A stretch of DNA of 64,000 bases from a bacterium (GTDB lineage Bacteria; Pseudomonadota; Alphaproteobacteria; Rs-D84; CACZYB01): assembly GCA_014803575.1 (NCBI GenBank), contig JAAVBO010000022.1, positions 4,138 through 68,137 of the forward strand, read 5' to 3'. Below the pieces are notes generated by a model, which worked only from the letters and a program-made list of their open reading frames with translations, made no database searches and was not told where the DNA came from. Made by a program: the position numbers and the translations under genes. The first letter of the stretch is position 1; every line of letters starts with the position of its first letter. Below, one piece after another: positions 17,181-34,463 of the stretch.

Positions 17181-17621
17181 ATGAATTTTGTTGATGATAG
17201 AAATAAATTTATTAAGAAATCAAAACTTAATAATAGTATGAATAAATTAATATTGGCAAAAACTTTATTTAAAATTGCAGGCAGTGATGAATTGTTATTA
17301 AATGCTGTTGCAAATGTTATTTTAAATAGGTTTTTATATGAGTATGAAATTGATAATGAAATAACTTTTATAAAATGTATTACGGATATTTCTTTTTTGC
17401 CTTGTTGGAAAGATTTGAAATCTATGGATAATATTTGTATTGATAATAGTGTATTTAAAAAATGTTTTAATTTTGCGGGTTTTGTATTAAGTGGAAAATT
17501 AAAAGATGACACTTTTTCTTCTATCAGATTTCATAGAGTCGGAGAATTCCCATCTTGGGCAATAGGACTTAAATATATAAAAGATGTTTCCGGTTATCTT
17601 TTTTATAATAATTGTGATTGA
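17181..17621 (+). CDS. cell wall hydrolase, SleB/CwlJ (Hydrolase_2) family
   Basis: LLNAVANVILNRF matches the conserved (V)A(V)AAVILNR(V) core of SleB/CwlJ hydrolases. Confidence 0.55.
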   Translation: MNFVDDRNKFIKKSKLNNSMNKLILAKTLFKIAGSDELLLNAVANVILNRFLYEYEIDNEITFIKCITDISFLPCWKDLKSMDNICIDNSVFKKCFNFAGFVLSGKLKDDTFSSIRFHRVGEFPSWAIGLKYIKDVSGYLFYNNCD

Positions 17622-17647
17622 TAAAATAATTTGAAAGGGATTTTAGA

Positions 17648-18388
17648 ATGGATAATTTAAAAAATAATGAGTTAAAAAAAATTGTTCCTGATAATGGTAT
17701 TAAATCTGAGGTTGCAAATAAACCTTCTAATGTGCCGGAAAAATTTTGGAATAGTGAAACCGGAAGTTTAAGAGATGAAGAGCTTTTGAAATCTTATTTG
17801 GAATTAGAAAAAAAATTTAGTTCTTGTTCCAAAAAAAAAGGTGATGATAAAAATATTTTGGAACTTGCTCTTGAAACAGAAGGTCCTGCATCAGATTATA
17901 ATATTGTACTTCATCATAAGTTATTAGATATTGATGAGAATCTTAATAAGCGGTTAAAAAATGCCGGATTCACAAATGCTCAAGCTCAACTTGTTTATGA
18001 TTTAGGGGCTGAAATAGTTATGCCTTTGATTGAAAATATTGTTGAACAATTTCGTGCCTATCGTGAGCTTGAAAAGTTGGAAAAATATTTTGGTGGAGAG
18101 GAACGTTTTGATGAAATTTCAAGACAGATTTTGATGTGGGCTGAAAAAAATGTGCCGGAAGAAATTTATGAATCTCTTAATTCTTCTTATTATGGTGTTA
18201 TTGCTTTGTATAATATGATGACAAGTAACAATGAACCTTCTATGGTGAATATGAATGGTGAAGGAGAGAGTGTGTTAAGTGAAAAAAAATTAAGAAGTAT
18301 GATGAGTGATCCAAGATATTGGAGAGATGGTGATAAAGATTTTATAAAAAAAGTTGATGAAGGTTTTAAAAATTTATATGACAGATAA
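17648..18388 (+). CDS. T7 gp9-like capsid assembly (scaffolding) protein
   Basis: Acidic helical protein; GGEERFDEI ~ T7 gp9 GGRERFDAL and C-terminal MSDPRYWRDGDKDFIKKVDE ~ T7 gp9 MSDPRYRTDANYRRQVEQKV (from memory). Confidence 0.55.
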   Translation: MDNLKNNELKKIVPDNGIKSEVANKPSNVPEKFWNSETGSLRDEELLKSYLELEKKFSSCSKKKGDDKNILELALETEGPASDYNIVLHHKLLDIDENLNKRLKNAGFTNAQAQLVYDLGAEIVMPLIENIVEQFRAYRELEKLEKYFGGEERFDEISRQILMWAEKNVPEEIYESLNSSYYGVIALYNMMTSNNEPSMVNMNGEGESVLSEKKLRSMMSDPRYWRDGDKDFIKKVDEGFKNLYDR

Positions 18389-18480
18389 AATTTTTTAATA
18401 CTTTTTTGATATTTTTTATTGAAGTATGCTTTTGAATGTGATATACTGAAATTGTCTTTTGTTAAATAGGAGAGAGAAAT

Positions 18481-18813
18481 ATGTTTAAAAGTATAATTAA
18501 AAAAGCTAAACCTGCTTCTAAAAAAGTTGAAGCAAAAAAGGCTCCTGCTAAAAAAGCAGTACCAGCTAAAAAAGTTGCAGTTAAAAAAACTACAACAACA
18601 ACTGCTAAAAAAGTTGTTGCAAAGAAACCTGTTGTAGCAAAGAAAGTAACTGTAAAAAAGGCTCCTGCTAAAAAAGTAGCACCAGCTAAAAAAGTTGCAG
18701 TTAAAAAAGCACCTGCTAAAAAAGTAGTTGTTAAAAAGGCTGCTGTAAAAACTGCTTCTGTAAAAAAATCAGTTAAACCAGTTGCAAAAAAAAAAGTAGC
18801 AAAAAAGAAGTAG
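18481..18813 (+). CDS. histone H1-like lysine/alanine-rich DNA-binding protein
   Basis: Tandem AKKAxPAKKVAVKK repeats; antisense ORF 18462..18914 is an artefact of the same repeats. Confidence 0.8.
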   Translation: MFKSIIKKAKPASKKVEAKKAPAKKAVPAKKVAVKKTTTTTAKKVVAKKPVVAKKVTVKKAPAKKVAPAKKVAVKKAPAKKVVVKKAAVKTASVKKSVKPVAKKKVAKKK

Positions 18814-18824
18814 TTGATATTTCT

Positions 18825-19382
18825 TTGATGGTATCTAATCCCAATAAAAAGGGTAATGAGGTTAAGAAAAAAACTTCGTTTATCTCTTCTTTGTTGGGAT
18901 TTTTTTATAACCATACAAAAAAAATATTGTCAGTTTATCTTGCTCTTGTCGTTGTATTTTCTTTCGCATTTGCTTTCATAAGAGAGTTGGATGTTTATAA
19001 GCAAATAAGATTTTCAACTAATCCTGTGGAAATTATGTTTATTTCTATTGCATATTCCATATTTGATATTATCAAATATTTTGTGCCGGTTCTTATTATT
19101 GCTTTGATTGTAAAGTATATTATGATGAAGGCGAGAAAGATAAAATTAAAATTTGTTTTTAAAAGAAGTTTCAAAAGACAAACAATGATTGCGTTTACAA
19201 TTTCATTTGTTTTTGCAATTATATTTTATTTTGATGTTTTATTGGTGACCAATTATTCTCGTCAATTAGTAGAATCATCATTAGAGTTATTTATTTTGTT
19301 CTTTTTATCTGTATTATTTACATTGTCTTCAATGTATGGTTTGTTAAAGGGAATTTCTCCTGTATTTGAACAAAAAAAATAA
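18825..19382 (+). CDS. membrane protein, hypothetical
   Basis: 4 TM segments. Confidence 0.45.
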   Translation: MMVSNPNKKGNEVKKKTSFISSLLGFFYNHTKKILSVYLALVVVFSFAFAFIRELDVYKQIRFSTNPVEIMFISIAYSIFDIIKYFVPVLIIALIVKYIMMKARKIKLKFVFKRSFKRQTMIAFTISFVFAIIFYFDVLLVTNYSRQLVESSLELFILFFLSVLFTLSSMYGLLKGISPVFEQKK

Positions 19383-19556
19383 TAAAATTAATTTTAATTA
19401 TACTTTGTAAGATTTAAAATCCGCCGGTTTGTGCGGATTTTTAATTTTGCAAATAATATGCAGATAAAGTTTCGGGATAACATTTCTTTATGCCCCGTTT
19501 GGGTGTGCCTTTATTTTAAAGGCATTTTTTTAATTTAAAAAAAAGGAGATATAAAT

Positions 19557-20393
19557 ATGTCAATTTCTATTGATCAATCTTTTATAAAACAGTTTGAAGC
19601 CGAAGTGCATCTTGCTTTTCAACAAACAGGAACAAAACTTCGTTCTACTGTCAGAACAAAAAATGATGTAAGAGGTAGTTCTACAACTTTCCAAAAAGTA
19701 GGTAAGGGAACTGCTACAACAAAAGCAAGACACGGTCTTGTGCCAGTTATGAATTTGGATCATACACCTGTTGAATGTGTATTATCAGATTACTATGCCG
19801 GTGATTGGGTTGATGAGTTAGACGAGCTTAAAACAAATGTTGATGAAAGACGTGTTGTTGCATCTGCCGGTGCGTATGCATTGGGTCGTAAAAGTGATGA
19901 GCTTATTATTTCAGAACTTAATCTTGCTTCACAATCTGTTGAAATGGGAACAACCGGTCTTACAAAGGCGAAAATCCTTTCTGCTTTGGAAATACTTAAT
20001 AATAATGATGTGCCAGATGATGGTCAAAGATTTGCTGTTGTCGGTGTGCATCAATGGAATGAACTTTTAAATATGAAAGAATTCTCAAATGCTGATTATG
20101 TCGGTGATTCTTATCCTTTATTAAACGGAACGGAATCAAGAAAATGGCTTGGTATTAATTGGATTATGCATAATGCTTTGCCTTTTGATGAAGATAATTC
20201 TTCAAGAGCTTGTTTTATCTATCACAAAAATGCAATAGGTCATGCATCAGGTTGTGATGTTAAAACTGATATTACATGGCATGGTGAAAGAGCTGCGCAC
20301 TTTATTTCTAATTGTATGAGTCAAGGTGCAAAGCTTATTGATAACAGCGGTATTGTTAAAATTATGTGTAAAGATACTTCTGTGATTGGTTAA
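19557..20393 (+). CDS. T7-like (gp10-like) major capsid protein
   Basis: FQKVGKG...VPVMNLDHTPVE...DERRVVASAGAYALGRKSDELIISELN resembles T7 gp10 FPVLGRTQAAYLAPGENLDD...DVRSEYTSQLGESLAMAADGAVLAEIAGL (from memory); strong RBS aaaaaggagat. Confidence 0.75.
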   Translation: MSISIDQSFIKQFEAEVHLAFQQTGTKLRSTVRTKNDVRGSSTTFQKVGKGTATTKARHGLVPVMNLDHTPVECVLSDYYAGDWVDELDELKTNVDERRVVASAGAYALGRKSDELIISELNLASQSVEMGTTGLTKAKILSALEILNNNDVPDDGQRFAVVGVHQWNELLNMKEFSNADYVGDSYPLLNGTESRKWLGINWIMHNALPFDEDNSSRACFIYHKNAIGHASGCDVKTDITWHGERAAHFISNCMSQGAKLIDNSGIVKIMCKDTSVIG

Positions 20394-20419: not shown

Positions 20420-20674
20420 ATGTCAATGGATTCAAAAAATTTATCAGTTCTTGCTTATTCTAACGGTTTTACTTTGTGGCATTATAAAACAGATGATGCG
20501 AAAACTGTTGTCGGAGCAAGCGGATATTTCAATAAAGTGTCGAATATATTTAATGTAGGAGATGTTATTTTTGCATCTCTTGGAAATACCTCAAAAGAAA
20601 TGGTAATGTATACAGTTTCTTCTGTGGAAAGTGGTGTTGTTAGTGTGTCTGATGTAATGCCAACAAGTGTTTAA
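20420..20674 (+). CDS. small phage-module protein, hypothetical
   Basis: Sits between capsid and tail tubular A; own RBS and terminator. Confidence 0.4.
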   Translation: MSMDSKNLSVLAYSNGFTLWHYKTDDAKTVVGASGYFNKVSNIFNVGDVIFASLGNTSKEMVMYTVSSVESGVVSVSDVMPTSV

Positions 20675-20733: not shown

Positions 20734-21297
20734 TTGATGAATAATTTTACAATGGTGGATTTGTGTTCTAAGGCTTTGAATAAAATAGGAGCAAGTGAAA
20801 TAGTTTCTTTTGACGAAGGAACACCAGAGGCGGAATTTTCAAGAAGTATATATCCTGTATTAAAGCATAAGTTATTATCATCATTTCCATGGAGTTTTGC
20901 AACGGAAATTAAAAGGCTTAATAAGATTGTTATTGAAGATGTGGAAGCAGAATTTTCTAATTGTTATTTGCTTCCGTCTGATTTTATAAGGGCAGTGAAA
21001 ATTTCATCAAAACTTCCATATAAGATTATTGGGGATAAATTATTTACCGATGCGACAGGTGTTATACTTACTTATATATCTGATGTTGATGAATGTAGGT
21101 TTTCATCTGCTTTTGTATCGGCATTTATTTATGCTATTGCAGCAGAATTATCGGTTTCGCTTTTGGATGATGTGACTAAATTTAATTTATTATACCGACT
21201 TTATACTTCTGAATTAAGGGAAGCAAGATTTTTAGACAGTATGCAGGAAAGTCCAAAAAAGTTTAATGACTTTTCTTTGATTGATGTGAGGTTTTAA
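20734..21297 (+). CDS. T7 gp11-like tail tubular protein A
   Basis: Size (187 aa), position after capsid, N-terminal ...KALNKIGASEIVSFDEG...WSF... resembles gp11 ...NDILASIGEPPVSTLEGD...WTF. Confidence 0.65.
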   Translation: MMNNFTMVDLCSKALNKIGASEIVSFDEGTPEAEFSRSIYPVLKHKLLSSFPWSFATEIKRLNKIVIEDVEAEFSNCYLLPSDFIRAVKISSKLPYKIIGDKLFTDATGVILTYISDVDECRFSSAFVSAFIYAIAAELSVSLLDDVTKFNLLYRLYTSELREARFLDSMQESPKKFNDFSLIDVRF

Positions 21298-21304: not shown

Positions 21305-23218
21305 GTGAATATGTATAAACAAGTGATTTCTAATACTAACTTTTCCTATGGTGAAATTTCCCCTTATTTATTTGGAAGAGGAGATATTGAGGCATATAAA
21401 TCCGGAGCAATGACTATTTCGAATATGACAGTTATTCCTACCGGCGGAATAAAAAGAAGAGATGGAACTAAGTTTATATCTCAGTTGTCGGGTGTAGGAA
21501 AATTGTTGGTTTTTGAATATTCTTCGGACAAAGTATTTCTTTTGTGTTTTACTGATAAAATATTGTATATTTATGATAGCGATAATAATTTGGTCGCATC
21601 TTTGTATTCTCCGTTTAGTTTGGAACAACTTTCTAATATAAGATGGTCACAGAAAGGTAATCTTCTTTTTATTGTGCATAAGGATATTTTTCCTAAGATT
21701 TTAAAATATATTCCGTCTGGCAATATTTGGAAGTTTGAAGATTGGGTGTTTGATAAAAATCCGGAAACCGGAGCTTCGTATCAGCCGTTTGCAAAATTTG
21801 ATGATACAGAAGAAATTTCTCTTACTCCATCAAATTTGACCGGAGAGATAGAGTTGGAAGCTTCGGACGAATTTTTTGATGTTTCTTATGTCGGAACAAA
21901 AATTAAAATAAATGGTGGTGAAGTTTTGATTACAGAGTTTATTTCTTTTGTGAAAGTTAAGGCTTTGGTTATTATTGAATTAGAAGGTACGGAAGCTTCT
22001 TATTTTTGGCAAGAACAGGCATTTTCTTGCAGGCGAGGTTATCCTAAAACTATTACATTTCATCAAAACAGATTGGTTATAGGGGCATCAAAATCTTTAC
22101 CTAATAGATTGTGGTTTTCCAAAACTGGAAATTATTTTAATTTTGATTTAGGTGAAGGTCTTGATGATGAAGCGATAGAGTTTGATATGTTATCGGATAA
22201 AGTTAATGAAATTGTTTGTGTGTTTTCAGGACGGCATTTGCAGGTTTTTACATCTGATTCCGAATGGATGGTTTCCGGATTGCCTTTGACACCATCATCA
22301 TTATCCGTAAAACAACAAACAAAAATCGGTTCTGTTTCGGATAGATTTATCTCTCCTAAATTAATAGAAGGTTCAACTGTATTTGTTGCAAAAAATAATA
22401 AGGAAATCAGAGAATTTTTCTATGGTGATATTACTGAAAATTATTCATCCGAAGATTTGATTTTACTTTCTAACCATTTGATGAATAAACCGAAAGAATT
22501 GGATTATGATATTAAAAAAAGATTGCTTTATGTTTTACAAAGTGACGGAACTGTTTCTGTTTTACTTTTGAATAAAACAAGTGGTATTAATGCTTGGTTT
22601 AAATATGAAACTTGCGGAGAATTTATTTCTTTGTGTGTATTTTTAAATAATTTATATGTTATTGTAAAACGTGAAAATGACTATTTTTTAGAAGTATTTA
22701 CGGAAGATATTTTTACTGATAGTTCGTTGGTATTTAAATCTAAAAATAAAACAAATAAAATAGTTGGAATTTCCCATTTGAATAATAAAGTTGTCAGTGT
22801 TAATGCCGATAATTATGTTTTTGATGTAAAAGTTTTAAATGGGGAAATTAATTTACCGATTGAGGCGGAAAATATTTTTATCGGACTTCCTTATACACAT
22901 ATTTTGTGTCCGTTACCATTTTTGATAGGTGGTGTTAGGGCGCCTAAGGTTGTTAGGTTGTTTGATTTGTCTTTTCGTGTTATGGATACACCTTTATTGC
23001 AAATAGATACCGGTGATGGTTTAAGAAATATTACCTGTCGTAATTTTGACAGGGAAGATAATATTGATAATCCAATAAAAATTTTTAGCGGGGATGTTCA
23101 TATAAAGGCAAAAGGTTTGTTAAGAAATTTTAATGTTCCGTTATGGAAACTTCAAAGTTCAAAACCTTATAATGTTAATATTTTAAATGTTTCTGCTACT
23201 GTTGGTAGCGTAAAATAA
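21305..23218 (+). CDS. T7 gp12-like tail tubular protein B
   Basis: QNRLVIGASKSLPNRLWFSKTGNYFNFDLGEGLDDEAIEF ~ T7 gp12 FRNRLGFLSGENIILSRTAKYFNFYPASIANLSDDDPIDV; follows gp11-like gene. Confidence 0.75.
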   Translation: MNMYKQVISNTNFSYGEISPYLFGRGDIEAYKSGAMTISNMTVIPTGGIKRRDGTKFISQLSGVGKLLVFEYSSDKVFLLCFTDKILYIYDSDNNLVASLYSPFSLEQLSNIRWSQKGNLLFIVHKDIFPKILKYIPSGNIWKFEDWVFDKNPETGASYQPFAKFDDTEEISLTPSNLTGEIELEASDEFFDVSYVGTKIKINGGEVLITEFISFVKVKALVIIELEGTEASYFWQEQAFSCRRGYPKTITFHQNRLVIGASKSLPNRLWFSKTGNYFNFDLGEGLDDEAIEFDMLSDKVNEIVCVFSGRHLQVFTSDSEWMVSGLPLTPSSLSVKQQTKIGSVSDRFISPKLIEGSTVFVAKNNKEIREFFYGDITENYSSEDLILLSNHLMNKPKELDYDIKKRLLYVLQSDGTVSVLLLNKTSGINAWFKYETCGEFISLCVFLNNLYVIVKRENDYFLEVFTEDIFTDSSLVFKSKNKTNKIVGISHLNNKVVSVNADNYVFDVKVLNGEINLPIEAENIFIGLPYTHILCPLPFLIGGVRAPKVVRLFDLSFRVMDTPLLQIDTGDGLRNITCRNFDREDNIDNPIKIFSGDVHIKAKGLLRNFNVPLWKLQSSKPYNVNILNVSATVGSVK

Positions 23219-23236: not shown

Positions 23237-23707
23237 ATGGGTAATGTTGCTAATACTGTGAGTGCTGTGACATCGGCAGTTGGAGTTGTTGATAATATTG
23301 TTAGCTATAAAAACAATAAAGATAAACAAAAGGAAGAAAATAGAATATTAGAAGAAGAAAAGCGAATAAAAGAAGAGCAGATTGATGTAAAAAAACAACA
23401 ATATAAAGAAGAAAAAACAAATTTGTTGAAGGTGAAGCTTGCTTCTCAAAGGGCTAAATTGGGTGCTAACGGAATTAATGCAACTTCCGGCTCTTCTGTG
23501 GCATATCTTTCTAATTTAGAAAAGAATGTTGATGAAGAAATTGCAAAAAATGATTATTTCGCTGATTTGAATCTGCAAAATGAAAATAATATTTATAATT
23601 ATAAAAAGAAAGTTAATTTATTAAATTCATCAAAAAATAATTATAATGTTTTTTCTGATACTTTGAAGTCAACTACACAGCTTTTTTCTTCGTTATGGAA
23701 AATTTAA
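23237..23707 (+). CDS. coiled-coil phage-module protein (possible gp13-like internal/assembly protein)
   Basis: Position after gp12-like gene, size 156 aa, charged coiled-coil; no motif-level match. Confidence 0.3.
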   Translation: MGNVANTVSAVTSAVGVVDNIVSYKNNKDKQKEENRILEEEKRIKEEQIDVKKQQYKEEKTNLLKVKLASQRAKLGANGINATSGSSVAYLSNLEKNVDEEIAKNDYFADLNLQNENNIYNYKKKVNLLNSSKNNYNVFSDTLKSTTQLFSSLWKI

Positions 23708-23718: not shown

Positions 23719-24441
23719 ATGATGAATGATATTATTGAATATTCCTATATTTGTGATGGGAAACAAACTGTTTTTGAATATTTATTTGAAACTTTTTCTG
23801 TTCCATTTGTGAAAATTTATCTTGATGGAGAATTGATTGAAAAAGGTTTTACAGTTTATCCGTTTAATGATAAATGTGGTGGAAAGGTTGTGTTTGAATA
23901 TCCTCCATTAGCCGGTAAAAAATTAACTGTTTTAAGAGAATTGAATTTTTCCAGAGTTTGTGATTTTCAAACTGGCGGTGTTTTTAGGGCAGAGGATTTA
24001 AATTATGAAATGAATTATAATATTGCTTGTCTTAATCAGTTAGATAAAATATTGAAGAAATCTATAAAACTTTCCCGCTTTGATAACAAAGAAGTAAATC
24101 CTGTTTTGCCTCCGGCAAAGGCAGGTCATGCAATTGTATGGAACGAGAAGGGAAATGGATTTTCGAATTTAGATATTAATATAACCGAACAAGTAAACTT
24201 TGTTGAAGATTGCTTGAATTCGGTGGAAAATTTATATAATGATTTGACTGAGATTATTACAAACAGTCTTGATGTCGGTATTTTGGGACTTTTTCATAAT
24301 TTGTTGGGTCTTATCAGAGGATATCATCCCGATGCCTTTGAAGATTTTAAGTTAATTTCATCTGATTCGGATAAAATTTTTGATTATGGTTTGGTTAGTG
24401 ATACTCAAAACATTAATGTGAAAAATAATGGTAAATTGTAA
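23719..24441 (+). CDS. T7 gp17-like tail fibre, N-terminal adaptor domain only
   Basis: EYSYICDGKQTVFEYLFETFSVPFVKIYLDG ~ gp17 TYQLDGSNRDFNIPFEYLARKFVVVTLIG; FRAEDLNYEMN ~ LRAYDLNVAQI; 240 aa vs ~550 aa fibre, no distal domain. Confidence 0.55.
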   Translation: MMNDIIEYSYICDGKQTVFEYLFETFSVPFVKIYLDGELIEKGFTVYPFNDKCGGKVVFEYPPLAGKKLTVLRELNFSRVCDFQTGGVFRAEDLNYEMNYNIACLNQLDKILKKSIKLSRFDNKEVNPVLPPAKAGHAIVWNEKGNGFSNLDINITEQVNFVEDCLNSVENLYNDLTEIITNSLDVGILGLFHNLLGLIRGYHPDAFEDFKLISSDSDKIFDYGLVSDTQNINVKNNGKL

Positions 24442-25042
24442 AAAAAATACAAAAGTCAGTTTTTTAGAATTTTTGAAAATATGGTGTGATGTGCAAGGTA
24501 TTTCTTTGCCTTTGCACCATAAAAAAATTGCTCAGTGGTTGGAAGAGATTTTTTATTCTGATAAAAAAAAGGGGTTGTTATTAGCGTTCAGAAGTAGTGG
24601 GAAGTCTACTGTCGTTGGACTTTTTTGTTCATGGCTTTTGTATATTAACCCGAATGTCAGGATTTTGGTTTTGGCGGCGGATACGGTGCTTGCAAAAAAA
24701 ATGGTGCGAAATATAAAAAGGATAGTGGAGATTCATCCTATGTTAGAGGATATTAAACCCAAGAAAAAGCAAGAGTGGGCTTCGGGAAGTTTTACTGTGG
24801 AGCGAGATTTGGCACTTCGTGATCCATCTGTGATGGCGGTTGGACTTCTTTGCAATTCGACTGGAAGCAGGGCAGATGTTATTATTTGCGATGATGTGGA
24901 GGTGCCGAAGAACTGTGATACTTATCAAAAACGGTGTGATTTGAGGGAAAAATTATTGGAGTTGAATTTTATTTTGGTGCCTAATGGAATGCAGATTTTT
25001 ATAGGGACACCACATACTTTTGATACCATTTACAAGGTTTAA
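24428..25042 (+). CDS. T7 gp19-like large terminase, N-terminal ATPase half (stand-alone ORF)
   Basis: Walker A LAFRSSGKST, GSRADVIICDDVEVP ~ T7 GSRADIIIADDVEIP, IGTPHTFDTIYKV ~ LGTPQTEMTLYK; stops immediately after this motif. Confidence 0.8.
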   Translation: MVNCKKNTKVSFLEFLKIWCDVQGISLPLHHKKIAQWLEEIFYSDKKKGLLLAFRSSGKSTVVGLFCSWLLYINPNVRILVLAADTVLAKKMVRNIKRIVEIHPMLEDIKPKKKQEWASGSFTVERDLALRDPSVMAVGLLCNSTGSRADVIICDDVEVPKNCDTYQKRCDLREKLLELNFILVPNGMQIFIGTPHTFDTIYKV

Positions 25043-26215: not shown

Positions 26216-26221
26216 TAAAAT

Positions 26222-26818: not shown

Positions 26819-27028
26819 TGCCTATGGGTATTGCTGACAGAGAGCTTTTAGATAGTAAAAATATTTATAAAGATTTATAAAAGTAGGTCCATATGTGCCC
26901 GCCCCAAGGGGGATAGACCAAAGAGTATCGGCTTTGATGACTGATGAAGGTGTGAAATTCAAAATAATCCTTGAAAGTTTTCTGTGTTTCAGTTTATACT
27001 TCAAAATATAAAAAACGAAAGGTCTATT

Positions 27029-27805
27029 ATGAATAATGTAAATGCGAATACCAATACTGAAAAAGAAGAAATTAAATATTTGACCCTTGATGATATAGAT
27101 AAAATGTATGAAGAGGCGGAACCTGCGGATTGGGGTTTCCCAGAGAACTATAGTGCTGTAGCTTCTAATAGATATCAAAATTTAACAACTTATGTAAAAC
27201 TTACTAAAATAGAGATAGAACGATTACCTGCTGATCATGCTAAGCTTCTTTTAGATTTTTATAATTTGTTTGATGAAAATGAACCTTATAAAGATAAGGA
27301 AGGTACTCCATATAGGGATAATTTATTAAATGATTTATATTATAATATATATGATGACGATTATGCACCTCTGTTTTCATCATCTAATGGAAAAAAAATC
27401 TATAGACACGATATTAAGTATGTAGAAAAGAACTGGAATAATCGTGTTGTAAAGGTTACTAAAATAGGAACAGAAGAAATACCAGTATTAGATAAAAATC
27501 AAAAGATAGAGAAATTGAAAAAATCCTTTGATATATTCAAAAGATTAAAAGAAAGGGATTTAGTTCTTGCCAGTATGTATGATAGAATAGTTAAGGAGGG
27601 GAGGGACTACTTGACATACCATGATTATCTTGGAAATTTTAATACACATTGTATGCTATTAGACGAAGGACGTTTACTTGATTATATAAGATATTTTTTT
27701 GCTAAAGCTAATTGGCGTGGTGCTTTATTTATACAGAACAAATTTCCAAATGTAAAAGTCACGGAAAATATGATGGCACAGTATTTGGAATATAAAGGAA
27801 GGTAA
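27029..27805 (+). CDS. hypothetical protein (258 aa)
   Basis: ATG 27029 with RBS gaaagg preferred over GTG 26984 of ORF track; no recognisable motif. Confidence 0.5.
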   Translation: MNNVNANTNTEKEEIKYLTLDDIDKMYEEAEPADWGFPENYSAVASNRYQNLTTYVKLTKIEIERLPADHAKLLLDFYNLFDENEPYKDKEGTPYRDNLLNDLYYNIYDDDYAPLFSSSNGKKIYRHDIKYVEKNWNNRVVKVTKIGTEEIPVLDKNQKIEKLKKSFDIFKRLKERDLVLASMYDRIVKEGRDYLTYHDYLGNFNTHCMLLDEGRLLDYIRYFFAKANWRGALFIQNKFPNVKVTENMMAQYLEYKGR

Positions 27806-27811
27806 TAAAAT

Positions 27812-27836
27812 CCCCTCTTTTGAGGGGTTGTTTTTT
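27812..27836 (+). terminator. Rho-independent terminator
   Basis: cccctc-tttt-gagggg hairpin + T-run. Confidence 0.55.
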
Positions 27837-27838
27837 AT

Positions 27839-28795
27839 ATGATATTTATGTATAATAATACTATGAATGAAGAGTATTTTAATATTGCCGGTTTTACAAA
27901 GTATCCAACGAATATATATAATTCGGAGCCGGAGAATGGTTATGCTCAAGGGGTGAATGAATGTAAGATTCCGGAGGCCTTGGTTTATTATGGCTTAGAT
28001 TCTGATACCCAATTTATGAAGTTATTTAATCCTGTATGGTATAGTGTTTTGAAGAGTTGTAAATTGCAGGCTGTTGTTTATAGTATATCAAATTATTTAT
28101 TTGATAACAGTCTTTCTCCTTTGTGGAATAAGTTTGAAAGAAATGTTGTTGATATGTTGCCGGCTGTGATAATTCTTTGCGGTTGGCAAAGGCATATTGA
28201 AAATATGAAAAAGAAAAAATTTGATATAACTCAGATTGAATTTAACAGGCAAGAGATACGAAATACTTTGACAAAGGGTATGCGAGTTTATGGGAAATCC
28301 GGTATGCTTATATCCGGAATGATATGGGCGAGTATATTATTGAATGCGAATCTTGTACAGTTAGGATGTTTACAATATGAAATAAAGAAAGCAAATAATC
28401 AATATGTGTGTGATGAAATATCTATTGGAGATATGATTGTTGCGATACATATTCCTGCCGGAGCTTTGTTTACTCCTGATGCAGTAGAGAAATCCATTAC
28501 AATGGCAAAGGAGTATTTTGGAGATAAGGTTTCGTTTATATGTAATTCTTGGTTATTGGGTGAACAGTTGGGTACTTGTCTAAAATCTGACAGTAATATT
28601 TTTAATTTTCGAAGGTATTTTAGTATAATTAAAACGGAAGATTCTGAATCTGTTTATAATTTTTTATTTAATAATGCGGATGATAATCCTAATATATCTG
28701 ATTTAGCGGAGGGAACATCTTTGCAAAAGTCAGTTAAAAAGGCTATGTTATCAGGTATTCATTTTTATGATGCGATTGGGATTTTGAAATGTTAA
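27839..28795 (+). CDS. hypothetical protein (318 aa)
   Basis: No recognisable motif; start uncertain. Confidence 0.45.
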   Translation: MIFMYNNTMNEEYFNIAGFTKYPTNIYNSEPENGYAQGVNECKIPEALVYYGLDSDTQFMKLFNPVWYSVLKSCKLQAVVYSISNYLFDNSLSPLWNKFERNVVDMLPAVIILCGWQRHIENMKKKKFDITQIEFNRQEIRNTLTKGMRVYGKSGMLISGMIWASILLNANLVQLGCLQYEIKKANNQYVCDEISIGDMIVAIHIPAGALFTPDAVEKSITMAKEYFGDKVSFICNSWLLGEQLGTCLKSDSNIFNFRRYFSIIKTEDSESVYNFLFNNADDNPNISDLAEGTSLQKSVKKAMLSGIHFYDAIGILKC

Positions 28796-28908
28796 GACTT
28801 ATATTTGGTTTAGATATAAAATAGGAGGCCGAAAAATATTTCTTTTTGCTTAAAATAAAAAAAAAGGTTGCCTTTTTGTAAAATATAGGTTATAAATCTA
28901 TCATCTTT

Positions 28909-28984
28909 GGCTAGGTAGCTCAGTCGGTAGAGCAAAGGACTGAAAATCCTTGTGTCGGCGGTTCGATTCCGCCCCTCGCCACCA
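28909..28984 (+). tRNA. tRNA-Phe (GAA)
   Basis: Cloverleaf by hand: anticodon loop cuGAAaa, T-arm ggcgg/ttcgatt/ccgcc, encoded CCA. Confidence 0.85.
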
Positions 28985-29020: not shown

Positions 29021-29246
29021 TTGTGTGTCGGCGGTTCGATTGTCCTCGGGCTTTGCCCTCGTTCGTCCCGTAAGGCTCAACTTCGGACTTTGTCCTCGTT
29101 TTGCCAACTATCGACTCGTCCTCGGGCTTTGCCCTCGTTCGTCCCGTAAGCTTAAAGCATCGCCTTTGGCTCGCGTTTAAGCAACTATCGACTCCCGCCC
29201 CTCGCCACCATAAAAGGTTGAACTCCCTATTTTGGGAGTTTTTTTA
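29021..29246 (+). other. second copy of tRNA-Phe 3' end (att-like direct repeat) split by a 153-bp GC-rich insert, followed by duplicated terminator
   Basis: gtgtcggcggttcgatt (29024-29041) ... ccgcccctcgccaccataaaagg (29195-29217) match the tRNA 3' end; insert 29042-29194 = two 76-nt units each starting with tcctcgggctttgccctcgttcgtcccgtaag and ending aactatcgactc. Confidence 0.7.
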
Positions 29247-29341
29247 TGTTTAAAGTTTTTTTTCTTAAAAATTTTCTTTATCTCTTAACATTTTGCTTTT
29301 TTTATGGTATAATGTCGGGGAATAAAGTAAGGAGAGATATT

Positions 29342-30958
29342 ATGATAGGAGAAGGAAACTTCGGCTATAATTCACAAAATGATGATGATATTCAAAATTT
29401 TATTCCACGAATCACCGTAATGGGAGTTGGTGGTGCCGGTTGTAATGCCGTGGGAAATATGATTTCTCAGGGTATTGACGGTGTTGATTTTGTTGTTGCA
29501 AATACAGATGCTCAGTCTTTGATGCAATCAAAAGCATCAAGGAAAATCCAACTTGGAAAGCAAACAACTCGCGGTTTTGGTGCCGGTTCTCGTCCGGAAG
29601 TAGGGCAAAGTGCGGCGGAAGAATCCTTAAATGAAATTACTGATGTTATTAAAAACTCTAATATATTATTTTTAACTGGCGGTATGGGTGGCGGAACTGG
29701 TAGTGGTGCTATGCCCGTGATTGCCTCGGTTGCAAAGGAAAAGGGGATTTTAACGGTTGCAATTATTACTACACCTTTTGATTTTGAAGGGGAAAAGAAA
29801 AAGCGTATTGCAAAAGAGGCTATTTCCAAACTTATCCCTAATGTGGATTGTGTAATAACACTTCCTAATCAGAATTTATTTAAGGTTGCGGATAAGCAAA
29901 TGTCGTTTATGAATGCCTTTAAGTTATCTGATAATGTCCTTTATGAAGGGGTTAGAAATATTACAGATTTAATTATGAAACCTGGACTTATTAACCTTGA
30001 TTTTGCCGATATAAGGGCGGTTATGGAAGGACAAGGTAAGACAATAATCGGGACTTCTGTTCAAAGTGGTGAAAATAGGGCTTTAAAGGCGGTGGAAGGT
30101 GCTCTTCTTAATCCTCTGCTTTCTAATGAAAGTATAAGTGGAGCAAAGGGTATTCTTGTAAATATTACCGGTAATGCGTCAAATCTTTCCTTGGAAGAAG
30201 TTGGGGAGATTATGAATACCATTAGAGCCGGAATAAATTCAGAAGATACGAATTTTGTATTTGGAACTTGCTTTGATGATTCTATGGGTGACAGTTTGAA
30301 AGTTGCAATTATTGCAACCGGAATTGATGGTGCAAACGTATCGCAAAAGCCGGTCCTCAGCAGTTTTGATAGTTTTACATCTGAGGTTGTAAAACCTACA
30401 CCTTATTCATTTGAGGAAGAAAAGAAAGTTGAAATTAAAATGGAAGAACCTGTTATCAAAGAAGATAATTTGAAAGTTAAACAGGAACCGATTGTAAATA
30501 CTGATAAACTTGATAGTTTTTTTGAAACCGGTGATGAAAAGGATATTCAAAGTTTTATTGATGAGGAAGCAGAAAAGCTTAACATTGCAAGTAATGTAAC
30601 AAATGAACTTTTTGCCGATAAATCAGATAAAATTTCATCTTCTGATGATGATGGTGATGATAATCCGGAACCACCAAAGGGAAAAAAGAAAAATCCTTTG
30701 TCATCATTTTTTGATATGATTGGAGAAAAAGGTAATGATGATACTTTCTTTGAAGATGTTGATTTGGGAAAGGATGATGATATTACTTTTAAGAAAGAAG
30801 AGCAAATTTCCGATAAAAAGGAAGAAGATAATGTCGTTTTTTTAGCAGGTAGTCTTGATACTAAAAATCAAGAGGATAAGCAAATTGATTTGATGGAAAT
30901 GATTAAAAAAATGGAGGAAACTTTGGAAATACCTGCAATATTTAAAAAAGGTTCTTAA
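29342..30958 (+). CDS. ftsZ: cell division GTPase FtsZ (long acidic C-terminal linker)
   Basis: GVGGAGCNAV, GGGTGSG tubulin signature; ATG 29342 with RBS aggagag preferred over ORF-track start 29246. Confidence 0.9.
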   Translation: MIGEGNFGYNSQNDDDIQNFIPRITVMGVGGAGCNAVGNMISQGIDGVDFVVANTDAQSLMQSKASRKIQLGKQTTRGFGAGSRPEVGQSAAEESLNEITDVIKNSNILFLTGGMGGGTGSGAMPVIASVAKEKGILTVAIITTPFDFEGEKKKRIAKEAISKLIPNVDCVITLPNQNLFKVADKQMSFMNAFKLSDNVLYEGVRNITDLIMKPGLINLDFADIRAVMEGQGKTIIGTSVQSGENRALKAVEGALLNPLLSNESISGAKGILVNITGNASNLSLEEVGEIMNTIRAGINSEDTNFVFGTCFDDSMGDSLKVAIIATGIDGANVSQKPVLSSFDSFTSEVVKPTPYSFEEEKKVEIKMEEPVIKEDNLKVKQEPIVNTDKLDSFFETGDEKDIQSFIDEEAEKLNIASNVTNELFADKSDKISSSDDDGDDNPEPPKGKKKNPLSSFFDMIGEKGNDDTFFEDVDLGKDDDITFKKEEQISDKKEEDNVVFLAGSLDTKNQEDKQIDLMEMIKKMEETLEIPAIFKKGS

Positions 30959-31033: not shown

Positions 31034-32530
31034 ATGATAGAAACAAATATTACAGATAAAAATATGATAGACGGTATTTACGAAAGGTATATTAATGCCT
31101 TGGAAAAACGTGCCGTTTGGGAAAATTATTGGGAGGAATGTTATGAATATGCTTTGCCACAAAAAAGCGGGATTTTCAAAAATGATAATGGCAGTGTGAA
31201 AAAAAATTCGACTGTTTTTGATTCAACTGCGGAATCTGCAGTAGACAGACTTGCCAGTAGTCTTCTTTCTCAACTTACACCGCCTTGGTCAAAATGGTTC
31301 GGGCTTGAATTTGGAATTGATATAAGTGATGATGAGGAAAGGTCGGAAAAGGTTCTTCAACTTGAAAATATTGAAAAAATTTTGCAATCGCATTTTGACA
31401 GGTCTAATTTTTATGTGGAGGCACATCAATGCTATCTTGATTTGATAACTGTCGGAACGGCGGTTATGTTATTTGAAGAAAATGCGGTCGGTGAAAATTC
31501 TGCGTTTAAATTTACGGCCGTGCCTATGAATGAAATTGTTTTTGAAGATAGCGGAAATGGAAAATTGGATAGTGTGTTTAGGCGTTCTAATGTTTCTCTT
31601 TCCAATTTGAAATCAAGGTTTGTAAATAGTGTTTTTGATGAAAGACAACAAGATATTATTTCAAAAAATTCTGATAAAAAAGTTTATGTGATTGAGGTGG
31701 TAGTTCCTCGTATTACCTCAACCGGACAACAAGGATATAATTACTTTGCGTTTGTGGATGATGTTGATGGAATATTTGGCAGTGATGAAAGAATTGTCCT
31801 TAAAACCGGAGTATTTGCAAATTCTCCGTTTATTTGTTTCAGATGGCAGAAGGTAAGTTCCGAAATATATGGAAGATCGCCCGTGATGAAGGCACTTCCC
31901 GATATTAAAACTGCAAACAAGGTTGTAGAGCTTATCCTTAAAAATGCGTCTATTGCGGTAAGCGGTATTTGGCAGGCGGATGATGACGGGATTCTAAATC
32001 CTCAGAATATTACTCTTGCCCCCGGAACTATTATACCAAAGGCAGTTGGATCTGCCGGACTTACACCTATCAGAAGCGGTGCTGATTTTGATGTGTCGCA
32101 ACTTGTTCTTTCTGATTTAAGGGCCAATATCAACAGGTGCTTATTGGTGGATCAATTGACTGCTTCGTCCGGTGGTAAAATGACTGCTACGGAAGTGATA
32201 GAGCGAATAAATCAGATATCCCGTATTTTGGGTGCGACTTATGGCAGATTGCAATCGGAGTTTTTGACTCCTGTCATTATTCGTGCGGTTAGCATTTTGA
32301 AGCGTCGCGGGGAAATTTCTGATATAATGGTGAATGGGTATGAAGTTGATTTGAAGTATCAATCTCCACTTGCGCAAAATCAGATAGTTCGCGATGCCGA
32401 AAATGTTTTAAATTGGATAAAAACTTTGGCTGAATTTGGTGAAGATGCAATGAGTATTATTGATAAAAAGGCTGTCGCATTATGGCTTGGTAAAGTTTTT
32501 GGTGTGTCTGAAAAATTGATTATATCTTAG
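31034..32530 (+). CDS. T7 gp8-like portal (head-to-tail connector) protein
   Basis: EIYGRSPV ~ T7 gp8 ESYGRSYI; GGKMTATEVIERINQISRILGATYGRLQSEFLTPV ~ GERVTAEEIRYVASELEDTLGGVYSILSQELQLPL (from memory). Confidence 0.75.
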   Translation: MIETNITDKNMIDGIYERYINALEKRAVWENYWEECYEYALPQKSGIFKNDNGSVKKNSTVFDSTAESAVDRLASSLLSQLTPPWSKWFGLEFGIDISDDEERSEKVLQLENIEKILQSHFDRSNFYVEAHQCYLDLITVGTAVMLFEENAVGENSAFKFTAVPMNEIVFEDSGNGKLDSVFRRSNVSLSNLKSRFVNSVFDERQQDIISKNSDKKVYVIEVVVPRITSTGQQGYNYFAFVDDVDGIFGSDERIVLKTGVFANSPFICFRWQKVSSEIYGRSPVMKALPDIKTANKVVELILKNASIAVSGIWQADDDGILNPQNITLAPGTIIPKAVGSAGLTPIRSGADFDVSQLVLSDLRANINRCLLVDQLTASSGGKMTATEVIERINQISRILGATYGRLQSEFLTPVIIRAVSILKRRGEISDIMVNGYEVDLKYQSPLAQNQIVRDAENVLNWIKTLAEFGEDAMSIIDKKAVALWLGKVFGVSEKLIIS

Positions 32531-32545: not shown

Positions 32546-33427
32546 ATGGAAGAAGATTTGAGTAAGCCTTTTTTGGTCGGGTTTGATGTCCTTAAAATAC
32601 CTGTGATTGAAAATGGAAAACCTACTTGGGAAGAAAAGTTTCCGATTCAAAAAATAGAGGAGCTTAAGGCACGAGTTGGAATTAAAAAATTTTCTTCCCA
32701 AATGATGTTGATGCCTATTGATACAAATAAGGGTAGGTTCGATGTAAAAAAATTAAAATTTTATTCATCAGAACTTCTTATGGAAGAAAGAAACAGGCTT
32801 CTTAATTTTTCAATTAATGGGAATAAGGTTGTAAGTTGTTCTTGTTGGTGGGATCCGTCCTATGGGTCAAGAGGTGGTGACGGAAGTGTAATTTCTGTTG
32901 TTTTTATTGATGAAGTGGGGCGATATTATCTTCATGATGTAAAGTATTTATATCATTCTGATGGGAATGCAGAGGAAATTCAGTCTGCGGTTGACCAATG
33001 TAGGCAAGTGGGCGAATTTTTGCGGGAAAATCATATACCTTCTGTGTATGTGGAAAGTAATGGCATAGGCAAATTTTTGCCGGGGTTTTTAAGAGGAGAG
33101 CTTTCAAAAATGGGGGTAAATGCTACTGTTATTGAAAAAACATCCAGAATTTCAAAGAATTTGAGGATTTTAGATGCGTTTGATGTGATTATTTCCGCTG
33201 GGTATCTTTTTGTGAATGAAAAGGTTAAAGATACGCCTTGGATTGCAGAATTTTGTGATTGGGGTGTGGATACAAAATCGCATGATGACGGGCTTGACAG
33301 TGTTGCGGGGGCTATTTCTTCGCAACCGGTCAGACTTCCTTTGACTTTGTTTTCCGGTTTAAAGGGCAGGTATAGTTTGGCCGGAAAAACCTTTAAAATA
33401 AAGACTAATTTTGATATAGATTTTTAA
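32546..33427 (+). CDS. T7 gp19-like large terminase, C-terminal nuclease half (stand-alone ORF)
   Basis: FSSQMMLMP ~ FTLQFMLNP; WWDPSYGSRGGDGSVISVV ~ VIDPSGRGKDETGYAVLYT; HDDGLDSVAGAIS ~ HDDRLDALALGIE; own RBS aagagg 15 bp after portal stop. Confidence 0.8.
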   Translation: MEEDLSKPFLVGFDVLKIPVIENGKPTWEEKFPIQKIEELKARVGIKKFSSQMMLMPIDTNKGRFDVKKLKFYSSELLMEERNRLLNFSINGNKVVSCSCWWDPSYGSRGGDGSVISVVFIDEVGRYYLHDVKYLYHSDGNAEEIQSAVDQCRQVGEFLRENHIPSVYVESNGIGKFLPGFLRGELSKMGVNATVIEKTSRISKNLRILDAFDVIISAGYLFVNEKVKDTPWIAEFCDWGVDTKSHDDGLDSVAGAISSQPVRLPLTLFSGLKGRYSLAGKTFKIKTNFDIDF

Positions 33428-33442
33428 ATCGACAAATAATTA

Positions 33443-33471
33443 TTGACAAATCATATTTTTAAGTTTATATT
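33443..33471 (+). promoter_or_regulatory. sigma70-like promoter (TTGACA-17-TATATT)
   Basis: Seen in sequence; shares 18-nt caaataattattgacaaa with promoter at 25087-25104. Confidence 0.45.
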
Positions 33472-33501
33472 ATAACTATATTTTAATAAAAGAGGTATGA
33501 T

Positions 33502-34158
33502 ATGAATATGGATAATAAAAAATATTATATTGTATTTACAGGATTATTTTTAATCTTTGTAGGTTTCTTTGTTTATTTTATCGATTCGTCTAAAAAGGTA
33601 GAAAATAAAACAGTTAGTTTGACAAAACCTGTTTCTTATTCTGTGGAAACCGTGAAAGTGGTGAAAGTTGTTCAGGCGGAAAAACCAAAGGGATTGCCTC
33701 TTAATTATGTGTATGAAATTCCTAATTTTGAAAGAAGTATACCTTATTATTTAGGAACAAAGAGATTTATTGAAGAATTGGATAATTTTCAAATTATTTG
33801 CAGTGGAAAAAATTGCAACAGGCAGATTTTGACCGGCAAAAATGCAACAACTTCTAACTGTAATAGAAAAAATAATGTTAAAATTAAGGTTGTCAGAGGT
33901 GATGTGACTTTTTCAAAGAATAATTTGAAATATCTTAAAAGTAATACAAAGATAGTTGGTGATTTATATATTCGTGATATAAATTTCCTTAAAATTCCGA
34001 AAAATTTTGCTGTGATTGGAAATGTTTATGTTATAAATTCCGATGGACTTACTTTTATGGGTAAAAATTTTATTGATGGTCATATTTTTGTGAAGGGTAA
34101 GAGCAGTATCAGGGCTCTTCCATACGATGTAAAATTAACTGGTCAAATATTTATTTAA
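33502..34158 (+). CDS. membrane-anchored hypothetical protein
   Basis: N-terminal TM; repetitive beta-rich C-terminus; no motif. Confidence 0.4.
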   Translation: MNMDNKKYYIVFTGLFLIFVGFFVYFIDSSKKVENKTVSLTKPVSYSVETVKVVKVVQAEKPKGLPLNYVYEIPNFERSIPYYLGTKRFIEELDNFQIICSGKNCNRQILTGKNATTSNCNRKNNVKIKVVRGDVTFSKNNLKYLKSNTKIVGDLYIRDINFLKIPKNFAVIGNVYVINSDGLTFMGKNFIDGHIFVKGKSSIRALPYDVKLTGQIFI

Positions 34159-34181
34159 TTTTGTTTGTTTTTGATGATAAA

Positions 34182-34208
34182 GGGGTGGTTTTGCCACCTC
34201 TTTTTTTT
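34182..34208 (+). terminator. Rho-independent terminator
   Basis: ggggtgg-tttt-gccacctc hairpin + T8. Confidence 0.6.
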
Positions 34209-34223
34209 ATATAAGGAGGAAAT

Positions 34224-34463
34224 ATGGATGAAAATTTAGATGTATTATTAAAAGATAATAAAGAATATTTTGATAACATAGAGGTGGATTTTGTAAGAAC
34301 CTTTAATAGCCAGAGCGGTAAGAAGGTTTTGAAATATCTTATACTTTTAAGTCTTGGTAGATATTTGCCACCGAATGCGACTAATGAAGAACTTCATTAT
34401 TTAGAAGGGGAACGTTTTCTTGTATCCTTTATTTTAAATATGATAAAGAAGGGTAAGAATTAA
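34224..34463 (+). CDS. small hypothetical protein (79 aa)
   Basis: RBS aaggagg; no motif. Confidence 0.35.
   Translation: MDENLDVLLKDNKEYFDNIEVDFVRTFNSQSGKKVLKYLILLSLGRYLPPNATNEELHYLEGERFLVSFILNMIKKGKN

Follow-up and report, generated by a model that had tools for sequence, protein, structure and literature searches.

Gene content of the module

We analysed a 64,000-nt stretch of DNA, hereafter the window (contig JAAVBO010000022.1, assembly GCA_014803575.1; all coordinates are positions in it), which is a metagenome-assembled contig from an uncultured gut alphaproteobacterium with 32% GC and which carries a module of podovirus-type structural genes at 17181-34463. An earlier interpretation made from the letters without database searches (hereafter the sequence-only reading) had recognised here a SleB-like hydrolase, a scaffold, a capsid, gp11- and gp12-like proteins, the N-terminal part of gp17, a portal, and both halves of gp19. 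Pfam and PHROG profile scans, supplemented by sequence searches against solved structures in the Protein Data Bank (PDB), confirmed all of them as intact + strand open reading frames (ORFs) homologous to phage structural genes, and added three genes that the sequence-only reading had missed, at 20420-20674 (phrog_18004), 23237-23707 (phrog_418), and 34224-34463 (Bbp19-like). For comparison, a portal alignment was scanned against one genome per species, which gave at least 585 confirmed stretches encoding portal relatives; the two peptide patterns behind these stretches correspond to roughly 300 or more species, which is a lower bound. Detailed locus comparisons cover the best 80 of these stretches, and some counts take in 82 or 87 loci. 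Labels such as L002, L033, and L088 denote the relatives' loci compared with the window, and the window together with its relatives of 61-93% portal identity (L002/L005, L006, L007, L008, L086, L088, L089, L090, and L091) is referred to as the window clade.

The first gene of the module (17181..17621; all phage-type genes described here lie on the + strand) encodes a homologue of the SleB family of cell-wall hydrolases. The protein has no Pfam match of its own, and its orthologues match PF07486; an iterated profile ties it to canonical SleB-like genes with the YGEARGE motif, which adjoin the large terminase (TerL) and portal genes in 29 loci, and also matches a gene of the pelagiphage EXVC031P (E = 6e-54). 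The next gene encodes a T7 gp9-type scaffolding (capsid assembly) protein (17648..18388; PF05396, E = 5e-11), homologues of which were found in 77 loci. Between the scaffold and capsid genes lie clade-specific inserts. One encodes a Lys/Ala-rich (KA-rich) histone-H1/HC2-like protein (18481..18813), whose match to PF07382 reaches 28 bits and is below the Pfam cut-off of 40; equivalent KA-rich ORFs occupy the same position in L090 and L091, and its membership in the module is uncertain. Another encodes a hydrophobic 185-aa protein, x185 (18825..19382), with several apparent membrane-spanning stretches, which shares 64% identity with its positional counterpart in L091 and 53% with that in L002; it matched nothing in the Pfam and PHROG scans and is a possible holin-like lysis or release factor.

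The major capsid protein (19557..20393) matches PF19821 (E = 5e-78) and phrog_3437 (E = 3e-78), as well as the phage major capsid protein of PDB entry 9eg4 (E = 1e-28). Directly 3' of its gene lies that of p84, a small conserved phage protein of 84 aa (20420..20674; phrog_18004, E = 2e-13); 59 loci and the pelagiphage have it in this place as well. Tail genes follow, namely, those for a gp11-like tail tubular protein A, or adaptor (20734..21297; phrog_394, E = 6e-37; PDB chain 9efk_T, present in 12 copies, E = 2e-6), and for a gp12-like tail tubular protein B, or nozzle (21305..23218; phrog_376, E = 4e-110; PF25675, 25.8 bits; PDB 8ck1 tail nozzle, E = 1e-41). Directly 3' of gp12, in the window as in 45 loci with homologues, is the gene for a small internal-virion-protein-like protein of 156 aa (23237..23707; phrog_418, E = 4e-7), which has an MG- N-terminus, a coiled-coil region, and a conserved R-A-x-x-G-x-x-G-S motif. 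The run continues with a short tail fibre (23719..24441), composed of a gp17-type N-terminal adaptor with a weak match to PF03906 (E = 5e-4) and about 130 further residues; the fibre also matches phrog_28871 and phrog_1640, and in an iterated profile search it matches the pelagiphage fibre with E = 2e-65. It is 240 aa long in the window, compared with 541 aa for the full fibre in free-living relatives (L087). The ATPase half of the large terminase, in a gene of its own (24428..25042), ends this part of the module.

Beyond two host genes, those for tRNA-Phe (28909..28984) and FtsZ (29246..30958), the module resumes with a portal protein of the T7 gp8 family (31034..32530; PF12236, E = 8e-123), which also matches the T7 portal structures 3j4a and 6r21 (E = 2e-15). 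The sequence-only reading had correctly placed ftsZ, tRNA-Phe, and the histone-like gene inside the module. The nuclease half of the terminase (32546..33427) comes next and is followed by x218 (33502..34158), a membrane-anchored protein with a beta-rich C-terminus. This protein accompanies the module, and its homologues occur in the window clade only, between the TerL nuclease gene and Bbp19; a single-sequence AlphaFold2 model shows a transmembrane helix and short-strand repeats at low confidence (mean predicted local distance difference test score of 53). The last gene encodes a Bbp19-like small phage protein (34224..34463; PF25181, E = 2e-5), with homologues in 82 loci and in the pelagiphage; in other lineages it adjoins the portal gene. 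Terminator-like hairpins were located at 19416, 26222, 27812, 28994, 29220, 30978, and 34179, so they follow some of the genes only, and not each of them as had been proposed. From the capsid gene to the TerL ATPase gene there is no such hairpin, and the genes overlap or abut in an operon-like run.

A large terminase encoded by two genes

The two terminase genes of the window cover the profile phrog_38 consecutively, the 204-aa ATPase half at profile positions 264-458 (E = 2e-38) and the 293-aa nuclease half at positions 468-701 (E = 2e-34; PF22530 weak), and they lie 7.5 kb apart. About 35 other loci encode TerL in one ORF of 490-530 aa, whereas the window clade has two genes, for proteins of 199-205 aa and 283-293 aa, with the break falling in the variable linker that joins the ATPase domain to the nuclease domain. 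The ATPase half keeps Walker A (AFRSSGKST), Walker B (ADVIICDDVE), and the GTPH motif, and the nuclease half keeps the CWWDPSYG, ESNGIGKF, and HDDGLDSVAG motifs. In L010, a deeper-branching relative, TerL already consists of two ORFs (positions 345-2400 of that locus) that are still adjacent, about 380 nt apart; this arrangement resembles a stage on the way from the single-gene TerL to the dispersed two-gene form. Our literature search with the phrase 'split terL' turned up jumbo-phage papers solely. The divided terminase offers a natural experiment in viral motor design, in which the ATPase and nuclease subunits have been encoded apart over long evolutionary time.

Directly 5' of the single-gene TerL, and overlapping it, 34 loci carry an ORF of about 105 aa with an acidic tail (s105, phrog_31793; 6896-7213 in L033), which is absent from the window clade. 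From its position we infer that s105 is the best small-terminase candidate of the element family. The profiles of s105 and of two further small ORFs, s113 and s137, gave no significant match when compared with PDB sequences.

Rearranged layout of the window clade

All window-clade relatives share a two-block layout. Block 1 contains, in order, the genes for the SleB-like protein, the scaffold, the KA-rich protein, the membrane protein, the capsid, p84, gp11, gp12, the internal protein, the fibre, and the TerL ATPase; block 2 contains those for the portal, the TerL nuclease, x218, and Bbp19. The two are separated by small RNA-like elements, tRNA-Phe, and ftsZ, and mipZ is convergent at the far end. 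In the window, ftsZ is located away from ftsA and ftsQ, between tRNA-Phe and the portal gene, and mipZ (34460-35323) is convergent 3.5 kb downstream. The adjacency of ftsZ and the portal gene is kept down to FtsZ identities of 40-53% (L007, L008, and L010). The window alone has the stretch 25043-28800, which includes x219, x273, and a GNAT_C-domain gene. The junctions ftsZ-portal and Bbp19-mipZ, and that leading from the TerL ATPase to the small RNA, tRNA-Phe, and ftsZ region, recur in independent assemblies from different samples and species, and the same junctions are found inside contigs of 270 and 365 kb.

The 5' boundary of the module is at 17181. In L090 and L091 the module begins at the SleB-family gene, directly after unrelated host genes, and these upstream neighbours differ, being accBC in L090 and rpsP-rimM-trmD-rplS in L091. 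Just upstream of the boundary the window has three consecutive overlapping small ORFs (15705-16791; 135, 106, and 121 aa) with no Pfam or PHROG match and no homologue among the loci compared; we rejected them as module members, as L090 and L091 carry different host genes at that position. In L090, the region 3273-4785, which precedes the module by 5 kb, also encodes a 399-aa protein that has an Mtd_N domain, together with a 100-aa partner. Mtd_N is the N-terminus of the tropism determinant of Bordetella phage BPP-1, and the L090 protein could be a detached receptor-binding protein; no homologue of it was found in the window.

The region between the blocks contains conserved RNA-like elements. 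Directly after the TerL ATPase gene, 25097-25510 has a consensus sigma-70 promoter (TTGACA-16-TATAAT) and, downstream of it, a unit of about 125 nt with three hairpins (minimum free energy of -37 kcal/mol, z = -3.6), the third of which exposes a 26-nt CU-rich, anti-Shine-Dalgarno-like loop. The 50-nt 3' part of this unit occurs three times with 115-nt spacing, and the promoter and the RNA unit are nearly invariant in relatives (L002 7345-7660 and L091 18005-18271), with one compensatory pair change. The region looks like a tandem array of small RNAs (sRNAs), although it has no Rfam match; an Rfam search of the window returned nothing other than tRNAs. A second pair of hairpins, CU-rich, identical to each other, and followed by a T-run, lies at 26614-26638 and 26792-26816, 178 nt apart. 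This pair, which is kept in L002 (8040-8100) a short distance 5' of tRNA-Phe and ftsZ, probably represents another small RNA or a terminator.

The element in other genomes

Portal homologues with 50-55% identity lie on chromosome-sized contigs of Magnetospirillum, Rhodospirillales, and 'Rickettsiales' metagenome-assembled genomes (MAGs). The best 80 loci come from Magnetospirillum, Paramagnetospirillum, Azospirillum, Terasakiella, Telmatospirillum, Caenispirillum, Haematospirillum, Thalassospiraceae, and Magnetovibrio, and from many alphaproteobacterial MAGs of gut and rumen. Their recurrent gene order is TerL, SleB-like, portal, Bbp19, scaffold, capsid, p84, gp11, gp12, and internal protein, sometimes followed by a fibre gene. 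The compact gut form in L033 extends over 11.4 kb (5237-16588); it starts with a divergent CI-like repressor, with helix-turn-helix (HTH) and S24-peptidase domains, and two small ORFs, ends with the internal protein, and is flanked by YhdP and hexapeptide transferase genes on one side and by genes for an esterase, a solute-binding protein, MlaC, and an M23 peptidase on the other. This compact form of about 11.4 kb is ancestral-looking. In Rhodospirillales, the element is divided into blocks 0.2-5 kb apart with unrelated genes between them. The CI-like repressor and the small ORFs s113, s137, and s74 were found in 64-72 of 87 loci.

Host genes flank the module directly in L002, L004, L033, L086, L087, L090, and L091, and between these host genes the element comprises 11-17 genes. 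No integrase, replication gene, or att-like context was found in these annotated loci, and the annotated flanks of relatives contain no phage RNA polymerase or replication domains. IMG/VR lists related regions as predicted proviruses of 15-25 kb, and our phage and IMG/VR searches found no complete phage (~35 kb) with more than 50% portal identity. The GenBank entry MT838907.1 (5084 bp, 'Bacteriophage sp.', human faeces) is a fragment of a gut-alphaproteobacterial element, with 65% identity in the capsid and 50% in the portal; it is either misclassified host DNA or element DNA that reached virus-like-particle fractions. As virus-prediction pipelines and GenBank list regions of the element as proviruses or phages, prophage counts in Alphaproteobacteria are inflated by it.

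Conservation, selection, and inheritance

Almost every copy of the module genes that we examined is intact. Among the 80 genome loci, intact copies account for 79/79 portal, 70/71 scaffold, 53/54 capsid, 48/49 gp11, and 47/47 gp12 genes. To estimate selection, we calculated pairwise ratios of nonsynonymous to synonymous substitution rates (dN/dS) between the window and a named relative by the Nei-Gojobori method. Against L088 the ratio was 0.070 for the portal, 0.121 for the TerL nuclease half, and 0.085 for Bbp19, values that are approximate because dS is 0.6-1.9 in most pairs and near saturation; the neighbouring host genes gave 0.094 (FtsZ) and 0.073 (MipZ). The TerL ATPase half had a ratio of 0.10-0.18 and x218 one of 0.14, and in the comparison with L002 the ratio was 0.11 for the capsid, 0.26 for the scaffold, and 0.25-0.36 for the tail genes. 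Rows of the comparison with L086 were disregarded, as its proportion of synonymous differences exceeds 1, which is impossible, and the GC difference and saturation are extreme. Rough as these ratios are, their contrast with neutrality is large, and for the portal, the TerL nuclease, and Bbp19 they indicate purifying selection on a par with that on FtsZ and MipZ.

The identities of the portal and of the adjacent FtsZ fall together from genome to genome (91/90, 87/84, 77/74, 71/59, 68/53, and 53/40%), and the capsid is 89% identical between the window and L002, genomes in which FtsZ is 74% identical. The GC content of the module follows that of its flanks with r = 0.99 over 82 loci of 29-73% GC, and the codon usage of the window module correlates with that of host housekeeping genes (r = 0.88). 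In a neighbour-joining (NJ) tree of portals, the bacterial sequences form a monophyletic group that excludes the nearest phage, and within it they sort by host taxon; this quickly built tree covers the best 80 loci only and leaves room for horizontal transfer. Intactness, selection, co-divergence, amelioration, and phylogeny agree in supporting domestication rather than decay. The decaying T7-like prophage that the sequence-only reading had offered as one option is contradicted by the modules of about 80 species, which are almost all intact, evolve under apparent purifying selection, and match their hosts in GC. Its other option, a domesticated head-plus-stub-tail system, agrees with the intactness, the FtsZ-like selection, the host flanks, and the grouping of portals by host taxonomy. 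Its proposed check on relatives gave the same answer, as no frameshifted copies were found beside a complete prophage and both synteny and dN/dS point to conservation under purifying selection.

Relation to known phages and particle systems

The structural genes are nearest to those of HTVC010P-type pelagiphages. EXVC031P, the phage compared, has nine homologues in the same order (SleB-like, portal, Bbp19, scaffold, capsid, p84, gp11, gp12, and fibre N-terminus), with 47% identity in the capsid and 35% in the portal. However, EXVC031P has an autonomous genome of ~34 kb with an early/replication region, functions that the element is without, and it has internal proteins of 783 and 1247 aa that are absent from the element and a TerL of a different lineage. 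Temperate members of this phage group also have an integrase. Only TerL is nearest to Autographiviridae gp19, with 30% identity to YeP4 over its full length and 31% to T7 over the N-terminal half. The element shares with T7 and the Autographiviridae the families of portal, scaffold, tail-tube A and B, fibre adaptor (weak PF03906), and large terminase, but has no RNA polymerase, DNA polymerase/primase, gp15, gp16, or recognised gp18; its capsid belongs to PF19821, outside the matches of the T7 gp10 family, and identity to T7 proteins is ~30%. The T7-like ancestry that had been proposed stands for the protein families and for the terminase and has to be amended for the structural genes, which are closest to HTVC010P-type pelagiphages.

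Gene transfer agents (GTAs) of the RcGTA type, from Rhodobacter capsulatus, Caulobacter, and Dinoroseobacter, are known to package and transfer DNA. Like RcGTA, the element consists of chromosomal phage-derived head, tail, and terminase genes without replication or integration functions, is passed on vertically and kept by purifying selection, may be scattered over several loci, and is spread across whole orders of Alphaproteobacteria. To judge from their sequences, its particle genes are chromosomally fixed, unable to replicate or excise, vertically inherited, and kept by purifying selection, as is typical of GTAs. The particles of a GTA, in addition, take up largely random host DNA in pieces too short for the complete set of GTA genes, and this DNA enters recipient cells and recombines there. 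The two differ in origin and range. RcGTA, of HK97/siphovirus type, has a prohead protease and a long tail, whereas the element combines a portal and scaffold of T7 gp8/gp9 type with a gp11/gp12 stub tail and a T7-type TerL and occurs mainly in Rhodospirillales-like and gut lineages; the Pfam and PHROG scans detected no prohead protease, tape measure, or RcGTA-type domain, all profile matches being of podovirus/T7 type. The candidate regulator of the element is a CI-like S24 repressor and not CtrA/GafYZ, and packaging and transfer have been demonstrated for RcGTA but are putative for the element.

PBSX of Bacillus is SOS-inducible, packages host DNA, and kills sensitive cells rather than replicating. 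It resembles the element in having repressor-controlled, chromosomally fixed particle genes, SOS inducibility being an inferred property of the element, but PBSX is myovirus-like with a contractile tail, is confined to Bacillus, and has no sequence relationship to the element. Tailocins are tail-only particles, whereas the element keeps capsid, scaffold, portal, and terminase. As capsid, portal, and a terminase with its catalytic motifs are all conserved, the GTA-like half of the earlier suggestion 'GTA-like or tailocin-like' fits and the tailocin-like half does not. Phage satellites and capsid-forming phage-inducible chromosomal islands (cf-PICIs) differ in that the annotated element loci have no integrase or replication gene and the element has its own tail-tube genes.

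The mitomycin-inducible particles of Azospirillum are reportedly siphovirus-like and attributed to RcGTA-like genes. The Azospirillum loci L079 and L082 carry the portal. We considered a link between the element and these particles, which contain random 10-kb host DNA (PMC3899980), and did not use it as evidence. A podovirus-like GTA-like element of Faecalibacterium, FpGTA, was reported in 2026 (PMC12946183), with experimental evidence for the packaging of 8.4-8.9 kb fragments (PMC12946183). It is likewise a small chromosomal operon of podovirus-type structural genes in gut bacteria (PMC12946183); it differs in its Firmicutes host and in that packaging, a prediction for our element, was observed there. 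The two were compared by description. We found no description of an alphaproteobacterial podovirus-type element in the searchable literature, the coverage of which is incomplete. The view that such a system is not a described class is, with the caveat of FpGTA, consistent with that literature, and the element would represent a new family of domesticated GTA-like phage elements, with the split terminase as an added unusual feature.

Interpretation of the element

The gene set for a procapsid, a T7-type packaging motor with both catalytic centres, a stub tail, and a few small virion proteins is intact. We consider it probable that the window holds the copy, in one lineage, of a domesticated podovirus element that is widespread, is inherited vertically, and would produce GTA-like or PBSX-like DNA-packaging particles. 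The cell would assemble podovirus-like particles, and the terminase would fill their heads with DNA; as there is no replicating phage genome, the packaged DNA would most likely be host chromosome. Lysis would then release the particles, which could deliver DNA to neighbours in the manner of a GTA or act without productive transfer in the manner of PBSX. Candidates for lysis are the SleB-like protein, catalytically doubtful in the window clade, and the hydrophobic 185-aa protein at 18825-19382. The upstream CI-like HTH and S24-peptidase repressor of most lineages suggests that induction is triggered by RecA/SOS. In the window clade, the separately encoded TerL ATPase and nuclease would have to reassemble in trans. 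The element has been remodelled in this clade, with its two blocks on either side of tRNA-Phe and ftsZ and without the repressor and the small upstream genes, and three clade-specific genes, for the KA-rich DNA-binding-like protein and two membrane proteins, may have joined the module.

Several observations weigh against such particles being formed or being able to transfer DNA. Particle formation, the DNA content of the particles, and transfer are predictions from gene content. No small terminase was recognised in the 64-kb window. The large internal core proteins gp14-gp16 were not found in the window or in the compact L033 element, and of internal-virion-protein-like genes the window has just the 156-aa phrog_418 one, so that the internal core, which the sequence-only reading had described as absent, is reduced rather than lost altogether, with gp15 and gp16 indeed missing. 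In T7, gp15 and gp16 serve DNA ejection, and as both are absent, DNA delivery into a recipient is doubtful; the reduced fibre of the window calls for the same caution, and the compact gut cluster L033 has no fibre gene. In every member of the window clade, the SleB-family protein has FK-IAG(S/D) in place of YGEARGE, a motif which we take to carry the catalytic glutamate of SleB enzymes. The protein is still 54-81% conserved, but with this motif lost no lysis enzyme with an intact active site is recognised in the window. Profiles of the CI-like repressor and of s113, s137, s105, s95, s126, and s74 from other lineages found no match in the window or its close relatives, with the sole exception of a weak HTH match to 36377-37375 (E about 1e-3). 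CtrA control as in RcGTA was considered and rejected, as TTAA-N7-TTAA occurs 6 times against 13 expected, with 0 in module promoters. The near-saturated dS values and the quick portal tree described above also count on this side.

Two of the competing explanations accept that the genes are functional. The element could be a domesticated particle system with another purpose, namely, a PBSX-like killer (phibacin), programmed lysis with release of extracellular DNA, or protein delivery. The evidence of selection and intactness applies equally to such a system, and the absence of gp15 and gp16, the 240-aa fibre of the window, and the lack of a fibre gene in the compact gut form would make DNA injection inefficient. 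Strict conservation of the portal and of the ATPase and nuclease motifs of the terminase shows, however, that DNA packaging itself is under selection. We regard a purpose other than gene transfer as rather unlikely; as PBSX also packages DNA, GTA and PBSX function are not separable by sequence alone. An active mobile element that has its other functions elsewhere or supplied by a helper, such as a temperate phage, a capsid-forming satellite, or a cf-PICI-like island, would account for the predicted proviruses of 15-25 kb in IMG/VR, for the 5-kb 'Bacteriophage sp.' entry MT838907.1, and for a CI-like repressor typical of temperate elements. We judge it improbable, as no annotated locus has an integrase, a replication gene, or an att-like context, the phage and IMG/VR searches gave no complete ~35-kb phage above 50% portal identity, the module has adapted fully to its hosts of 29-73% GC in base composition and codon usage, and the ftsZ/mipZ synteny is kept across deep divergence; satellites, moreover, depend on helper tails, whereas the element encodes its own.

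A defective T7-like or HTVC010P-like prophage remnant in neutral decay, without function, is what the loss of the genes for replication, transcription, integration, and most of the internal core would suggest. Profile scans recognised no RNA polymerase, replication (DNA polymerase or primase-helicase), or integrase gene among the ORFs of the 64-kb window, as the sequence-only reading had stated for these functions and for the small terminase; host genes also break up the module, and the SleB motif is degenerate in the window clade. Yet the window and nearly all of ~80 other species have intact ORFs, the dN/dS of 0.07-0.12 for portal, TerL, and Bbp19 equals that of FtsZ and MipZ, the capsid keeps 89% identity where FtsZ keeps 74%, and every catalytic motif survives in both terminase halves despite the split, which largely refutes decay and leaves it very little probability. 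An assembly or binning artefact joining phage and bacterial DNA could be suspected in a metagenome-assembled contig of an uncultured bacterium, but we take it as refuted, as the window junctions are repeated in independent assemblies and inside the 270- and 365-kb contigs and are therefore not those of a chimera.

The domesticated DNA-packaging element that we favour can be extended to a more specific scenario, which we put forward only tentatively. In it, an HTVC010P/T7-like podovirus was captured once, long ago, and became a functional GTA of podovirus type under host control, inherited across Rhodospirillales-like and gut Alphaproteobacteria, a counterpart of RcGTA where RcGTA is mostly lacking, and the window lineage was rewired next to ftsZ and mipZ with a two-gene TerL. 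If particles form, Magnetospirillum, Azospirillum, marine Rhodospirillales, and the abundant uncultured Alphaproteobacteria of gut and rumen would join the groups with GTA-like DNA exchange or PBSX-like killing, by a second, independent, and morphologically different domestication in the class from which GTAs were first known. Some carriers of the element, such as M. gryphiswaldense and Azospirillum, are genetically tractable.

Other features of the window

The remainder of the window is ordinary chromosome, with genes for triosephosphate isomerase, RecJ, an MltB-type transglycosylase, MipZ, and an FtsX/ABC transporter pair (LolCDE-like), and further housekeeping genes for YidC, PNPase, TruB, MutS, and YchF. 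ARAGORN called a 92-nt tRNA-Asp with the unusual anticodon ATC at 50142-50233, inside truB on the opposite strand; it has no Rfam support and is probably a false positive. An ankyrin-repeat protein is encoded at 2033-2545, and a LysM protein with a weak match to a polymorphic toxin (Ntox44) at 14121-15632. Both are consistent with a host-associated lifestyle of the bacterium.

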